Source: Micavibrio sp.
GTDB lineage: Bacteria; Pseudomonadota; Alphaproteobacteria; UBA9219
Reading direction: 5' to 3'
Length of the DNA: 64,000 nt
NCBI GenBank assembly: GCA_020718105.1
Contig: DYDA01000006.1
Span: forward strand, 5,442-69,441
The position numbers were made by a program, and so were the translations under genes. Of the stretch, positions 8,581 through 52,025 are shown piece after piece; within the stretch, counting starts at the first letter, position 1; each line of letters begins with the position of its first letter. The notes beneath the pieces are model-generated. The model was not told the DNA's origin. It saw nothing but the letters and a program-made list of their open reading frames with translations, and ran no database searches.

Positions 8581-9030
8581 GTGTCCAAGAAACCGCGCAT
8601 ACTGGTCCTCAACGGCCCTAACCTGAACATGTTGGGCGTGAGAGAGCCTGCGATCTATGGCTCTCTTACGCTTTCCGCTATCGAGGCTCTTTGCGCCCAG
8701 ACAGCGGATGAGGTTGGTCTGTCCATCGATTTTCGCCAAAGCAATCATGAGGGCGAGCTTGTGACTTGGATTCAGGAAGTGATCACAAAATCCTTTGATG
8801 GTATCGTGATCAATGCCGCCGCCTATACCCATACGTCGGTTGCGATTATGGACGCTTTAAAAATGACGGATGTGCCGATTGTTGAGGTTCATATCTCAAA
8901 TATCTTTACACGCGAAGCATTCCGCCATCATTCTTACGTTTCCCCCGTCGCCACAGGCGTTATTTGTGGTTTTGGCGCGGAAGGCTACAAGCTGGCGCTA
9001 CGCGCTTTAGCTAGTAAAATTATTCAATAA
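8581..9030 (+). CDS. aroQ: type II 3-dehydroquinate dehydratase
   Basis: [22 protein letters not shown]-terminus, 149 aa; GTG start; conserved aroQ-accB-accC context. Confidence 0.95.
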
Positions 9031-9045: not shown

Positions 9046-9504
9046 ATGAGCACTTTTGATCTTGATATAAAATTTGTCCGTAAGCTGGCCGAGCTTTTGA
9101 AAGAAACCGGCCTGACGGAAATTGAATATGCCGAAGGCGATAAGCGTATCCGCTGCGTTGGTGCTCATGCCCCTGTGCAGCAGATTGTTGCCGCGCCTAC
9201 CGCTGCTGCTGCTGCACCTGTTTCCGTTGCATCAAACGCGCCTGTTGCTGCTGTGCCCGTGGTGACAGAAGGAACGCACGTGACATCGCCCATGGTGGGA
9301 ACGGTCTATCTTTCGCCAGAACCCGGAGCGCCCGCCTTTATCAAAGTTGGCGATAAGGTCAAACAGGGCGACACGCTTTTGATTATTGAGGCCATGAAGG
9401 TCATGAATCCCATCAAAGCCCCCGCCAGCGGCACGATTGTTGAGCTTCCCGTCACCGACGCCAAACCCGTCGAGTTCGGCGAGACGCTGGTTGTGATCGG
9501 ATAA
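9046..9504 (+). CDS. accB: biotin carboxyl carrier protein of acetyl-CoA carboxylase
   Basis: Ala/Pro linker and biotinyl-lysine motif EAMKVMN; 152 aa. Confidence 0.95.
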   Translation: MSTFDLDIKFVRKLAELLKETGLTEIEYAEGDKRIRCVGAHAPVQQIVAAPTAAAAAPVSVASNAPVAAVPVVTEGTHVTSPMVGTVYLSPEPGAPAFIKVGDKVKQGDTLLIIEAMKVMNPIKAPASGTIVELPVTDAKPVEFGETLVVIG

Positions 9505-9516
9505 AAGGAAATTAAA

Positions 9517-9942
9517 ATGCTGGATATAACCGCATTTCGTAACGCGCTCACCCAATTGGAAACCATGGAGCGCTTTCGTCAGAAGGCTTTGGCAGAGAAA
9601 AATGCCGAAGCAGTAGCGGTTGGGCGCACAGCTGCCGTCAAAGGATTTGAATACTCCTATGGGCTTTCGATCAAGTTTATGCAGCGCACTGTTAATATTC
9701 TTGGTGCCGAAGACGATTCTAGTCGGTCTATACCCTTTCGCGATCTTTTACGCAGTGCTCTTGATTATGGACTGATTTCCTCTATCGACCCGTGGCTCGC
9801 TTATAGGGAAAAACGCAACGAAACCAGCCACGCCTATGCAGAGAATAAAGCCGAGGCTATCGTCACGATCATTCCCGCTTTTCTTAAGGAAGCACAGTGC
9901 CTTCTTAAGGCCATAGAGGCTAAAGCCAAGGATAAATCATGA
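9517..9942 (+). CDS. HI0074-family nucleotidyltransferase substrate-binding (HEPN-like) protein, putative toxin
   Basis: 141-aa protein with HI0074/HEPN-like sequence; start 12 nt after accB stop; stop overlaps next ORF start. Confidence 0.75.
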   Translation: MLDITAFRNALTQLETMERFRQKALAEKNAEAVAVGRTAAVKGFEYSYGLSIKFMQRTVNILGAEDDSSRSIPFRDLLRSALDYGLISSIDPWLAYREKRNETSHAYAENKAEAIVTIIPAFLKEAQCLLKAIEAKAKDKS

Positions 9943-10244
9943 TCCACGCGCCGGAAGAATGGACAAAATTGGTGCGTAAAGTCCTGCGTTTTAATCTGGA
10001 AGCAGGGGAAAAAGCGATCCTGTTTGGCTCTCGCGCCACGGGCGTGCGGCTTAAACAGTATTCAGATTTCGATATTTGTATTCGCGGCAAAGAAAAGATT
10101 GATGACCTTCTTAAAGCGGACTTGCGCGATGGTTTTTCTAATTCGCGCCTGCCCGTGCGTGTTGATGTCGTTGATTGGTTCGAAGCGCCGCCTTTCCTTA
10201 AAGAAATCATCGAAAAAGACGGCGTAGAGATAGATTATTCATAA
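9939..10244 (+). CDS. minimal nucleotidyltransferase (MNT), putative antitoxin partner of the HEPN protein
   Basis: GSRATG...SDFDI nucleotidyltransferase motif; 101 aa; ATGA overlap with upstream HEPN ORF. Confidence 0.8.
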   Translation: MIHAPEEWTKLVRKVLRFNLEAGEKAILFGSRATGVRLKQYSDFDICIRGKEKIDDLLKADLRDGFSNSRLPVRVDVVDWFEAPPFLKEIIEKDGVEIDYS

Positions 10245-10253
10245 GAGGTTCTC

Positions 10254-11594
10254 GTGTTCGAAAAAATCCTAATCGCCAATCGTGGCGAAATCGCCCTTCG
10301 CATCCATCGCGCTTGCCGCGAGATGGGTATTCATACCGTCGCCGTTCACTCAACGGCAGACGCTGATGCCATGCACGTGCGCCTTGCGGATGAAAGTGTG
10401 TGCATCGGCCCCCCCGCTGCGCGTGACAGCTATCTCAACATTCCCGCCATCCTGACGGCGGCGGCGATTACGGGCGTGGACGCGATCCATCCGGGCATCG
10501 GCTTTATGTCAGAAAACGCCAATTTTGCCGAGATGGTGGAAGAACACGGCTTCGCCTTTATCGGCCCCACGCCGCAGCATATCCGCATGATGGGCGATAA
10601 AGTCACAGCCAAGAAAACCGTCAAAGCTTTGGGTTTGCCAACGGTTCCAGGATCGGTGGGCGGCGTGCCAACGGTTGAGGAAGCCCGCGACGTTGCCAAA
10701 GAAACAGGTTATCCCGTTTTGATCAAAGCCTCGGCAGGTGGCGGCGGCAAAGGCATGAAGGTCGCAAACAGCGAAGATGAGCTGGAAGAGGCCTATAGGC
10801 TGGCGCGTGGCGAAGCAAGAGCTGCGTTTGGCAACGACGAAGTTTATATGGAAAAATACCTAGGCAAGCCGCGCCATATCGAAGTGCAGCTGATAGGCGA
10901 CACGCACGGTAACGCGGTGCATTTTGGTGAGCGCGATTGCTCGCTGCAACGACGTCATCAAAAGGTGATTGAGGAAGCGCCCTCACCGGGACTGAACGCC
11001 GATGAACGCGCAGAAATTGGCGCGATTGCGGCCAAGGTCGTGCGCGACATGGGCTATCGCGGCGTCGGGACGATGGAGTTTCTCTACGAAAACGGGCACT
11101 TCTATTTCATCGAAATGAACACGCGCCTTCAAATTGAACACACGATTTCCGAGATGATCACGGGCATCGATTTGGTGCGCGAGCAAATCCGTGTCGCCGC
11201 TGGCCTGCCGCTAAGCTATACGCAAGAGGACATCGTTTTTACGGGGCACGCGATTGAATGCCGCATCAACGCCGAGAATCCGGAAACCTTTATGCCTTCT
11301 CCCGGCACGATCAAGGGCTTTCATGCCCCAGGCGGCCTTGGCGTGCGCGTCGATAGCGCTCTGTATGATGGTTATAAAATCCCGCCCTATTACGACAGCA
11401 TGATCGCCAAGTTGGTCGTTCATGGCGCGACGCGTAACGAATGCATGCTCCGCCTGCGCCGTTCGCTGGAAGAATTCGTGATCGGCGGCGTAGACACCAC
11501 CCTGCCCCTTCACCGCCGCATCATCAGCCAGTCCGACTTTATCAACGGTCACTATGACATCCACTGGCTAGAGGATTTCTTGGGGTTAAAGTAA
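10254..11594 (+). CDS. accC: biotin carboxylase subunit of acetyl-CoA carboxylase
   Basis: MFEKILIANRGEIA N-terminus, ATP-grasp, 446 aa; GTG start; RBS aagagg overlaps the MNT stop codon. Confidence 0.95.
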   Translation: MFEKILIANRGEIALRIHRACREMGIHTVAVHSTADADAMHVRLADESVCIGPPAARDSYLNIPAILTAAAITGVDAIHPGIGFMSENANFAEMVEEHGFAFIGPTPQHIRMMGDKVTAKKTVKALGLPTVPGSVGGVPTVEEARDVAKETGYPVLIKASAGGGGKGMKVANSEDELEEAYRLARGEARAAFGNDEVYMEKYLGKPRHIEVQLIGDTHGNAVHFGERDCSLQRRHQKVIEEAPSPGLNADERAEIGAIAAKVVRDMGYRGVGTMEFLYENGHFYFIEMNTRLQIEHTISEMITGIDLVREQIRVAAGLPLSYTQEDIVFTGHAIECRINAENPETFMPSPGTIKGFHAPGGLGVRVDSALYDGYKIPPYYDSMIAKLVVHGATRNECMLRLRRSLEEFVIGGVDTTLPLHRRIISQSDFINGHYDIHWLEDFLGLK

Positions 11595-11646: not shown

Positions 11647-12522
11647 ATGCCCAAAAACTTCCTAAGATTTCTTGCTCATTATCTTGTGATACGCTTTGTT
11701 CACTTCTTTGGGGGGCTGTCTCTTCCGATATTAAACGCAGCCTTAAAGGCCTTCTCTATAGATTTGCATTTTGAGAAATGCCCCAATCTTGGCAAGGCTT
11801 TATGCCGTGTTACAGAGCGGCTGCCACACGCTGATAAGAATGCGCCGCCTAAGATTCAGTATTTTCATCTTCCCGAACGCGCTCACATTTATCTGAGAGG
11901 CATAACGCGCAGAGGGCAGCAAATCGCAGCCAATTATGGGATTGATCGTCTTTCATTGAAAGCTGATGATGTTGTCCTTGATGTCGGTGCGAACAGTGGC
12001 GATCTGTTGATTTATCTTTCTAACCTCAAAACCCCTCTGACCGTTCATTGTTTTGAGCCCGACCCCGTTGCCTTCGCTTCTTTGGCCTTGAATTGTAAGA
12101 ATCTAAAAGGCGCGCTTGCCGTTCATCAAGCGCTGGGGAATAAGTGTGAGTCTGCTGTGCTTTATCTTTCAACGCTTGGCGGCGATTCTTCTCTTTCTGA
12201 ACCAGCGACCTATGACACAACCATGCAGGTTAGCAGTCTTACGCTTGATAGCTGGCTCCAAAATCAGCCGTCTATTCCTTTGAACAAAGAAATTAAACTT
12301 CTTAAACTTGAAGCCGAGGGTTTTGAGCCTGAGATACTAGAAGGCGCGAGGGAAACACTTCACAGAATTCGCTATATTGCGGCGGATCTGGGATGGGAAC
12401 GCGGAACAACCCAAGATTGCACCATTCCCCAAGTTGTGAACCTTCTTTTAAAAAATAACTTTGTCATTGAGCATGTATCCAGAGATGGCGTGCATTTTGT
12501 CTTTAAAAATAGCTTGATGTGA
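11647..12522 (+). CDS. FkbM-family SAM-dependent methyltransferase
   Basis: LDVGANSGD SAM-binding motif, FkbM-like; 291 aa. Confidence 0.8.
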   Translation: MPKNFLRFLAHYLVIRFVHFFGGLSLPILNAALKAFSIDLHFEKCPNLGKALCRVTERLPHADKNAPPKIQYFHLPERAHIYLRGITRRGQQIAANYGIDRLSLKADDVVLDVGANSGDLLIYLSNLKTPLTVHCFEPDPVAFASLALNCKNLKGALAVHQALGNKCESAVLYLSTLGGDSSLSEPATYDTTMQVSSLTLDSWLQNQPSIPLNKEIKLLKLEAEGFEPEILEGARETLHRIRYIAADLGWERGTTQDCTIPQVVNLLLKNNFVIEHVSRDGVHFVFKNSLM

Positions 12523-51533: not shown

Positions 51534-52025
51534 TTATCCGATGTTAAGAAGTTCGCGCCGCTTGGAGTCAAAAGTATTAAACACATTCCGATTTACTGAT
51601 TTCAGTTGTTTGACAGAACGCTCAACAGATTCCATATACGAACTTTGGTCTGTGGGATGTCCTTCTTCAAGTGAAGTAAGCATATGAGACAAACAATTTT
51701 GCAAATCTGTATCATCTGGAAGCAATCCTTGGAGGGCTTTGATCGCTGCATTTGTACGAAAGGCTAGGTCGTAAGTTGGTTGATATATTTGAACCGAGCT
51801 TATCTGCTGCATAAAGTCAGATATAATATTAAAATGTGAGGCCAGCAGTTCAGCCTGTTGAATTCTTCGAGATTTGTTTGCTTCTTGAGCGGAACGTTCT
51901 GCCGCATCGCTTGAACGTTTAGAATCTCGTTTTGCCCACACGGAAATGCCTGTTCCGGTCGCGGACATACACAGGGCGAGAAAAGAGAGCCAATTTGCTA
52001 TATCGTCACTCATCGTCGCCTCCAA
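51534..52025 (-). CDS. hypothetical protein with N-terminal TM helix, between the mod remnant and res
   Basis: 163-aa ORF, 5-nt gap to res start, 20-nt overlap with the mod-fragment stop. Confidence 0.5.
   Translation of the reverse strand: MEATMSDDIANWLSFLALCMSATGTGISVWAKRDSKRSSDAAERSAQEANKSRRIQQAELLASHFNIISDFMQQISSVQIYQPTYDLAFRTNAAIKALQGLLPDDTDLQNCLSHMLTSLEEGHPTDQSSYMESVERSVKQLKSVNRNVFNTFDSKRRELLNIG

Follow-up and report, generated by a model that had tools for sequence, protein, structure and literature searches.

The stretch of DNA analysed here (the window) comprises 64,000 nucleotides of contig DYDA01000006.1 from a Micavibrio sp. assembly (GCA_020718105.1), and our subject is a pair of small genes that separates accB from accC, the genes for the biotin carboxyl carrier protein and the biotin carboxylase. 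The first gene encodes a HEPN protein and the second a minimal nucleotidyltransferase (MNT), and both stand in the same orientation as the flanking genes (Table 1). The original prediction had described a 12-nt gap behind accB, an ATGA overlap between the two inserted genes and an accC ribosome-binding site at the MNT stop codon, and the open reading frame (ORF) map and the sequence bear out this gene order and spacing.

The start codon of MNT overlaps the TGA stop of HEPN as ATGA (4 nt), an overlap that is kept in all copies of the pair and through which MNT would be translationally coupled to HEPN. At its other end, the TAA stop of MNT (10242-10244) is directly followed by GAGG, 6 nt before the accC GTG, so that the 9-nt gap between the two genes holds the accC ribosome-binding site. 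The same GTG start is used by two relatives with an empty site (L185 and L181; comparison loci carry an L). Antisense ORFs in the interval were unsupported and lie within well-supported coding sequence. A consensus scan, which would miss a non-canonical promoter, returned 3 promoter-like sites where 4.1 were expected, and terminator-like sites (5, with 5.7 expected) showed no excess over the shuffled expectation. We gave no weight to one promoter-like site at 9491-9518, which runs into the HEPN start codon. As neither a promoter nor a terminator emerged from the scan, co-transcription of the pair with accBC is probable. An Rfam scan revealed no RNA element at the locus, only three tRNAs far away, and a Pfam scan found no DNA-binding domain in HEPN or MNT.

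Table 1. Genes, motifs and junctions of the occupied accB-accC site in the window.
Feature	Position	Strand	Basis
aroQ, type II 3-dehydroquinase, heads the conserved aroQ-accB-accC cluster	8581..9030	+	Pfam DHquinase_II, E=2.4e-61
accB, biotin carboxyl carrier protein, flanks the cassette on the left	9046..9504	+	Pfam Biotin_lipoyl, E=6.4e-21; TAA stop
Left junction, cassette-borne 12-nt spacer AAGGAAATTAAA with the HEPN ribosome-binding site AAGGA	9505..9516	+	Sequence
HI0074-type HEPN protein, 141 aa, predicted RNase toxin	9517..9942	+	PF08780, TIGR01987, phmmer, AlphaFold model
RNETSHAY codons R100-Y107, RX4HXY motif; Tyr107, predicted AMPylation acceptor	9814..9837	+	Alignment
MNT, 101 aa, predicted AMPylating antitoxin	9939..10244	+	PF01909, PF18765, phmmer, model
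MNT G-S...D-x-D catalytic motif, codons G30-D45 GSRATGVRLKQYSDFD	10026..10073	+	Alignment
MNT third carboxylate D76	10164-10166	+	Alignment
Right junction, remnant of the ancestral accB-accC spacer (TCA TAA GAGGTTCTC)	10239..10253	+	Homology to the empty-site spacer of L185
accC, biotin carboxylase, GTG start, right flank	10254..11594	+	Pfam CPSase_L_D2, E=1.9e-79; Biotin_carb_N; Biotin_carb_C

Profile models, motifs and predicted folds agree on the identity of HEPN. The protein scored 88.7 bits against Pfam NTase_sub_bind PF08780 (E=4e-25, cutoff 31.8), its sole Pfam match at E<=0.01, with no match to DUF86 (PF01934), and 71.4 bits against NCBIfam TIGR01987, the HI0074 subfamily (cutoff 55.8). 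Among solved structures, phmmer ranked HI0074 (1JOG) best (E=7e-17), and the next relatives after HI0073/HI0074 were the chains of the Legionella pneumophila HEPN toxin/MNT complex (8XDJ/8XEH). AlphaFold, run on alignments built from database proteins, predicted a structure of five helices for HEPN (pLDDT 92.7). In Foldseek comparisons this model reached TM scores of 0.87-0.91 with 1JOG and of 0.72-0.81 with structures of the Legionella HEPN (8XEH/8YUF/8XDJ), and its similarity to HepT (7BXO/6M6U) was weak (E 0.03-0.3, TM about 0.6). The sequence R100-NETS-H105-A-Y107 forms an RX4HXY motif, within the Rx4-6H pattern by which the HEPN assignment was to be checked, and the assignment is thereby confirmed. 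An alignment of 17 sequences (acc-embedded copies and outgroups) shows no variation at R100, N101, T103, H105 or Y107, and R100, T103 and Y107 are also constant in 50 family representatives. R100/H105/Y107 of the window protein align with R98/H103/Y105 of the Legionella toxin, whose proposed catalytic E47 is retained as E45.

The second protein matches PF01909 (NTP_transf_2, E=1.2e-10) and PF18765 (Polbeta, E=3.6e-9). Its best phmmer match among solved structures was 1NO5 (HI0073, E=7.5e-11), with Shewanella MntA (5YEP) more distant, and its AlphaFold model (pLDDT 86.4) gave TM scores of 0.79 to 1NO5, 0.75 to the Legionella MNT and 0.66-0.69 to Shewanella MntA. With 101 aa it belongs to the short type that lacks the C-terminal alpha4 helix of Shewanella-type MntA. 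G30, S31, D43, D45 and D76 are invariant in nine acc-embedded MNTs, as is the N-terminal MIHAP in all nine copies. The assignment as a minimal nucleotidyltransferase therefore stands with respect to models and motif residues, but not in the exact GSx10DxD spacing that had been proposed for it: the motif reads G30-S31-X11-D43-F-D45, one residue more than the canonical GSX10DXD of HI0073.

Together, these homologies support a placement of the pair in the HI0073/HI0074 branch of HEPN-MNT modules, type VII-like by homology, and the original description as a HEPN/MNT toxin-antitoxin-like pair is upheld by family models, motifs and folds alike. A classical sequestering type II toxin-antitoxin system was set aside, as the homology points to the HI0073/HI0074 branch, whose characterised member is of type VII. 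A Shewanella-type HepT/MntA pair was ruled out by the missing DUF86 match and by a score of 33.3 bits against the NCBIfam MntA_antitoxin equivalog (NF047752), for which the cutoff is 60.

The usual arrangement of accB and accC was examined with a one-genome-per-species scan for AccC, which yielded 80 alphaproteobacterial loci whose AccC identity was 65-85%. At 79 of these loci the end of accB lies 5-209 nt ahead of accC, without a detectable HEPN or MNT between the two genes; the 80th has no upstream sequence. The premise that accB and accC are normally adjacent is thus borne out, and the wider conservation of aroQ-accB-accC is reflected in the presence of aroQ upstream of accB in many related loci. 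L003, the nearest of the 80 (AccC 85%), has an empty 14-nt gap between accB and accC.

The distribution of the pair itself was established with an MNT search together with an exhaustive phmmer search; a word-indexed homolog search with HEPN had returned a single match of 96% identity and was uninformative on distribution. The MNT search recovered eight protein clusters of 58-100% identity. A tblastn match of a family member elsewhere in the window (51618-51800, E=0.003, 30% over 63 aa) was dismissed as noise. Ten acc-embedded copies were collected, namely that of the window (WIN), L001 and L083-L090. All copies of this sub-clade with a readable flank (10/10) occupy the accB-accC slot, with intact ORFs: L001, L083, L084 and L085 show the complete order accB-HEPN-MNT-accC, L086, L087, L089 and L090 show HEPN-MNT-accC, and in L088 the pair is preceded by an AccB C-terminus and followed by the first accC codons. 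The L088 contig, from a public metagenome, ends in an Illumina TruSeq adapter right after the third accC codon (L088:880-957), its first ~70 nt (L088:1-70) are not readable as AccB, and it is probably adapter-contaminated or chimeric. Across the occupied loci AccC is 89-97% identical, while identity falls as low as 58-83% in MNT and 42-55% in HEPN.

As a control we inspected 89 distant family loci (L092-L180) from metagenomes and viral contigs, with HEPN identities of <=41%. None of these 89 family members lies in the proximity of accB or accC. Wherever an MNT was detectable at these free-standing loci (73/73), the order was HEPN-then-MNT, opposite to the published generalisation that MNT is almost always 5' in MNT-HEPN dyads (PMC3710099). 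By this comparison, the HEPN-first order is a trait of the HI0074 branch, and embedding in accBC is peculiar to one sub-clade.

An independent sample, in which close AccC relatives were chosen irrespective of the pair, contained empty sites at short distance. In L185 (GCA_041662785.1), whose AccC is 98% identical to that of the window, accC follows accB after 19 nt without any intervening gene, and the site is likewise empty in L181 (AccC 93%) and L182-184 (91%, GCA_009929575.1). Synteny is otherwise kept in these empty-site relatives, with M48 peptidase, dsbA, (aroQ), accB, accC and terC in order. In a neighbour-joining tree of AccC, L185, which lacks the pair, is sister to WIN, which carries it; L001, a carrier, lies outside these two, L181, without the pair, lies beyond, and the other carriers fall in a neighbouring sub-clade. 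AccC relatives of 86-93% identity on contigs of 12-238 kb were without a matching MNT cluster on contigs of that size, which suggests that carriers are a minority among the AccC relatives.

The insertion is therefore not universal, a point on which the original prediction had made its mobile reading depend. Judged from these loci, species-level relatives are polymorphic for the presence of the cassette, which is neither fixed nor domesticated. The view that the insertion is conserved across the whole clade, and hence old or domesticated, was rejected, because the loci behind it had been found via the pair itself and the AccC-based sample has empty sites. Such a patchy distribution argues against any role that is required for acetyl-CoA carboxylase, and a dedicated role in lipid synthesis is unlikely because sister species have empty sites.

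As regards the hosts, several AccC relatives (L185, P0161, P0188, P0230, P0268) are labelled 'Bdellovibrionales bacterium' in NCBI, with a gene that is clearly alphaproteobacterial. In the NCBI taxonomy, Bdellovibrionales also include Micavibrio, an alphaproteobacterial predator, and the nearest named relatives are metagenome-assembled genomes of uncultured 'Alphaproteobacteria bacterium'. The host group of the cassette is probably Micavibrio-like.

The same distribution bears on the alternative that the pair is a domesticated two-subunit nucleotidyltransferase, such as was first put forward for HI0073/HI0074, that modifies or regulates acetyl-CoA carboxylase or couples lipid synthesis to the ATP status. 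This would fit the presence of 10/10 sub-clade copies in the accBC slot with tight translational coupling, the conservation of MNT, which is about that of AccB (58-83% against 71-78% between sub-lineages), the purifying selection on both genes described below, and the existence elsewhere of MNT-HEPN pairs turned regulatory nucleotidyltransferases (PMC3710099). However, relatives with 98%, 93% and 91% AccC identity and 79 further alphaproteobacterial loci run accBC without the pair, and a single insertion spread through its flanks explains the fixed position equally well. Moreover, domesticated HEPNs typically lose their RNase residues (PMC3710099), but here RX4HXY is invariant and it is the HEPN core that is hypervariable. 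We consider domestication very unlikely.

Comparison of empty and occupied sites allowed us to delimit the cassette. Empty sites consist of the TAA of accB, a 19-nt spacer and the accC start (L185, L181); that of L185 reads TAA-tcataaaaggattagccct-GTG, and the spacer of L181 is tcaacaaaggatcagaccc. The AccB C-terminus (...VEFGETLVVIG*) is kept at occupied and empty loci alike, and the cassette starts right after the accB stop in 5/5 loci with a readable left junction, and also in L088. On the right, the window reads ...TAT TCA TAA GAGGTTCTC GTG and L083 reads ...AAG GAA TAA AGCCT GTG, the remaining occupied loci being similar, and these right junctions are homologous to the spacer of the empty site. 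The cassette was thus inserted exactly at the accB stop, ahead of the spacer that had originally led to accC. HEPN comes with a ribosome-binding site of its own, the MNT frame ends within the old spacer, which supplies its last codon and its stop, and accC retains the ribosome-binding site that it had before. The insertion point is identical in all copies, which argues for one founding insertion of the cassette. The cassette has a GC content of 47-48%; accB and accC have 55-57%, and the window averages 51.5%.

Both genes are under constraint. Between WIN and L001, dN/dS was 0.15 for HEPN, 0.085 for MNT and 0.036 for accC, and between L084 and L089 it was 0.085 for HEPN and 0.14 for MNT; values as low as these indicate that both genes are maintained by purifying selection. 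A decaying remnant without function, which persists since its deletion is difficult without harming accC expression, would agree with a consensus scan that found no dedicated regulatory signals and with a Lys at the place of the Gln that the Legionella HEPN uses for metal binding. Against such decay, the ORFs are intact in 10/10 copies at dN/dS values of 0.085-0.15, the catalytic residues of both proteins are invariant, and the structure models are of high confidence and native-like. In addition, there are precise empty sites, which makes it clear that the cassette can be lost or replaced, and we regard a functionless remnant as extremely improbable.

The divergence between WIN and L001, whose AccC is 97% identical, is unevenly distributed along the locus. 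Over HEPN (WIN 9465-9950 against L001:780-1265) it amounts to 2.5-5%, compared with ~6-16% in accC and 12-21% in aroQ. HEPN differs at 19/423 sites (4.5%) and the flanks at 186/1638 (11.4%; Fisher p=1e-5), and dS is 0.14 in HEPN, 0.41 in MNT, 0.32 in accB and 0.63 in accC. The pattern resembles a recent tract of recombination with the toxin gene at its centre. A second sign of exchange at this site comes from two pairs of loci with similar MNTs and very different HEPN cores: WIN and L083 share 83% identity in MNT and 44% in HEPN, and L086 and L087 share 82% in MNT and 55% in HEPN, the latter over the 49 aligned HEPN residues available. One break in the mosaic follows codon ~18 of HEPN, and a second lies where HEPN meets MNT. 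In L083 (375-1108) and in L086/L087, compared with window positions 9517-10241, the HEPN core is 30-55% identical, and similarity persists in the opening ~18 codons of HEPN and in its RX4HXY loop. HEPN alleles thus turn over much faster than MNT, with toxin and antitoxin uncoupled in their evolution, which suggests that toxin alleles were swapped against a conserved antitoxin. Dating of the HEPN allele classes by dS failed owing to saturation.

Hypervariability of HEPN beside a conserved MNT and a conserved catalytic loop is also the pattern expected under conflict with inhibitors, and so bears on a reading of the pair as a module for abortive infection or other defence against phages. On infection the HEPN RNase would be released, for example when a collapse of transcription or ATP ends AMPylation, and residence in an essential, constitutively expressed operon would guarantee expression. 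The patchy occurrence among close relatives, the presence of family members within type I restriction-modification (R-M) operons, on plasmids and on viral contigs, and the wide occurrence of HEPN domains in abortive-infection and defence systems (PMC3710099) are all compatible with defence. On the other hand, HEPN had no match at E<=0.1 in PADLOC-DB v2, and MNT had only weak PDC-S09 candidates there (E=1.8e-4 to 0.01). A match of MNT to a type I S-subunit model (E=1.2e-10), confined to the MNT part of that model, is a fusion artefact. There was also no match in a phage genome collection, no defence genes adjoin the locus, and omega within the allele lineages (0.09-0.15) gives no sign of positive selection. 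Defence is a plausible role that overlaps with the reading that we prefer; as an explanation in this specific sense it seems unlikely to us.

Taken as a whole, the evidence makes it probable that the pair is a functional type VII-like HEPN-MNT cassette, a selfish or conflict-related accessory module residing at one accBC site, and not a part of lipid metabolism. HEPN would act as an RNase-type growth inhibitor, as suggested by its homology to Legionella lpg2920/lpg2921, and MNT would keep HEPN inactive through ATP-dependent AMPylation of Tyr107, which lies in the RX4HXY loop. Neutralisation by AMPylation is a well-founded prediction by analogy to the characterised systems; the exact RNase chemistry of the window HEPN is less certain. 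Exchange or loss of the cassette appears to proceed by homologous recombination through its highly conserved flanks, accB and accC. At the loci that carry it, purifying selection maintains it, and so, plausibly, do addiction and the lethality of imprecise deletion.

Several observations weigh against this interpretation. On the side of mobility, we found no direct or inverted repeats and no target-site duplications at the cassette ends, and no integrase, transposase or other mobility genes near the locus. Composition is only mildly atypical, as GC3 of the cassette (0.47) is below that of accB (0.56) and accC (0.65) but like that of dsbA. The statement that most close AccC relatives are without the pair rests partly on the indirect absence of MNT clusters on long contigs, and most occupied loci are short metagenomic contigs, so that their host phylogeny is weak. 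On the side of function, MNT stays below the cutoff of the MntA equivalog, and Q44, a proposed catalytic and Mg-binding residue in Legionella, corresponds to Lys42 in the window protein and in all acc-embedded copies, for which reason the RNase chemistry may differ. Finally, dS is saturated between the HEPN allele classes, so allele replacement and accelerated evolution are inseparable.

A more far-reaching version, which we put forward as possible but doubtful, combines these elements into hitchhiking on an essential operon. A HEPN-MNT lineage would have specialised to the accB-accC slot, where it borrows the promoter and the accC ribosome-binding site and uses its essential, extremely conserved flanks as homology arms for recombination between species. 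The lethality of imprecise deletion would protect it there, and its HEPN core would be repeatedly swapped or diversified against a conserved MNT, in the manner of an arms race of conflict or defence. It is also a possibility that the ATP-dependent MNT makes the cassette a brake responsive to energy status, expressed in step with an ATP-consuming carboxylase.

Variation in this region is not restricted to the accB-accC slot. A second variable spot lies between accC and terC. In the window it carries a gene for an FkbM-type methyltransferase (11647-12522), with the lowest local GC (45%, GC3 0.43). In L185 (6342-6685) accC leads straight to terC, and L181 (6351-9534) and L084 (6545-7252) carry different genes without a Pfam match. 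L084 further contains a 372-aa ORF without a Pfam match between aroQ and accB (L084:2837-3955), a second, unrelated insertion in the cluster.

The locus shows clearly that a cassette of the toxin-antitoxin type can sit between two subunit genes of an essential enzyme without breaking the operon, and that occupied and empty states coexist in sister species. If the recombination reading is true, conserved essential genes can both carry and protect selfish or defence cassettes, which bears on the spread of accessory genes without mobile-element machinery. For genome annotation, an accBC operon with two extra genes is no metabolic novelty. Divergent HEPN alleles next to a conserved MNT also offer a natural panel for mapping which HEPN surfaces serve target choice and which serve antitoxin recognition, in an HI0074 branch that has been little studied.

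Among characterised systems, the closest is Legionella lpg2920/lpg2921 (8XDJ, 8XEH, 8XEO, 8YUF). The HEPN lpg2920 is a toxic Mg-dependent RNase, which the MNT lpg2921 poly-AMPylates on Tyr105 of the RX4HXY loop; HEPN activity is blocked by AMPylation and by tetramerisation, and the two genes overlap by 8 bp (PMC11586414). Both pairs consist of an HI0074-like HEPN of ~139-141 aa with RX4HXY and its acceptor Tyr and a short MNT without the alpha4 helix (101 aa in the window, 108 aa in Legionella), and both have overlapping genes in the order HEPN-then-MNT. They differ in that identity is about 22-27%, that the GS...DxD spacing is one residue longer in the window, and that the Legionella pair is a free-standing operon, whereas the window pair has no detectable promoter and lies between accB and accC. 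Both window proteins find their best match in sequence and fold in the Haemophilus influenzae pair HI0073/HI0074 (1NO5/1JOG), at an identity of about 30-34% and in a context unrelated to accBC. That pair has been described structurally as a two-protein nucleotidyltransferase, and we found no toxin-antitoxin test of it. The prototypes of type VII are Shewanella oneidensis HepT/MntA (SO_3166/SO_3165; 5YEP, 7BXO; PMC7641770) and the Aphanizomenon flos-aquae HEPN/MNT pair. By analogy, the window pair may share with these prototypes the logic of a HEPN RNase that is neutralised via (poly)AMPylation of the RX4HXY Tyr by MNT. In contrast to the window pair, the Shewanella and Aphanizomenon HEPNs belong to DUF86, and their MNTs (~139 aa) possess an extra alpha4 helix.

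A member of the same family uses another operon in Acetobacter pomorum. On plasmid pApBDGP5A (L187:400-2731) it stands directly behind the DNA methyltransferase gene of a type I R-M system, with overlapping stop and start codons. It shares with the window pair ~40% MNT identity, the order HEPN-then-MNT and the probable borrowing of a host operon for expression, but its host operon is a defence system on a mobilizable plasmid and not an essential metabolic operon of the chromosome. A plasmid copy of the family in Zymomonas is annotated as an R-M S subunit. The nesting of the family in R-M operons explains the PADLOC match of the window MNT to the type I specificity subunit, and it shows the tendency of the family to embed in other operons.

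We found no report in the literature of a HEPN-MNT pair inside accBC. The module type is already known, as is the insertion of HEPN-MNT pairs into housekeeping operons with strain-level presence and absence. In Thermus thermophilus HB8 an MNT-HEPN module lies in the lysine-biosynthesis operon and is absent in HB27, and Deinococcus DR0679-DR0680 is a further case; the authors read both insertions as recent mobility (Makarova et al. 2009, PMC2701414). The window shares with the Thermus case a HEPN-MNT pair in a biosynthetic operon that is present in one and absent in another of two close relatives. New are accBC as the host operon, which encodes two subunits of a single essential enzyme, the confinement of an entire sub-lineage of the pair to the accB-accC slot, the documented junction that reuses the accC ribosome-binding site, and the toxin-biased allelic turnover. 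Unlike in Thermus, where host, operon and HEPN subfamily may each be different, the accBC slot holds deeply divergent alleles across several species, and its junction anatomy and recombination signatures are documented.

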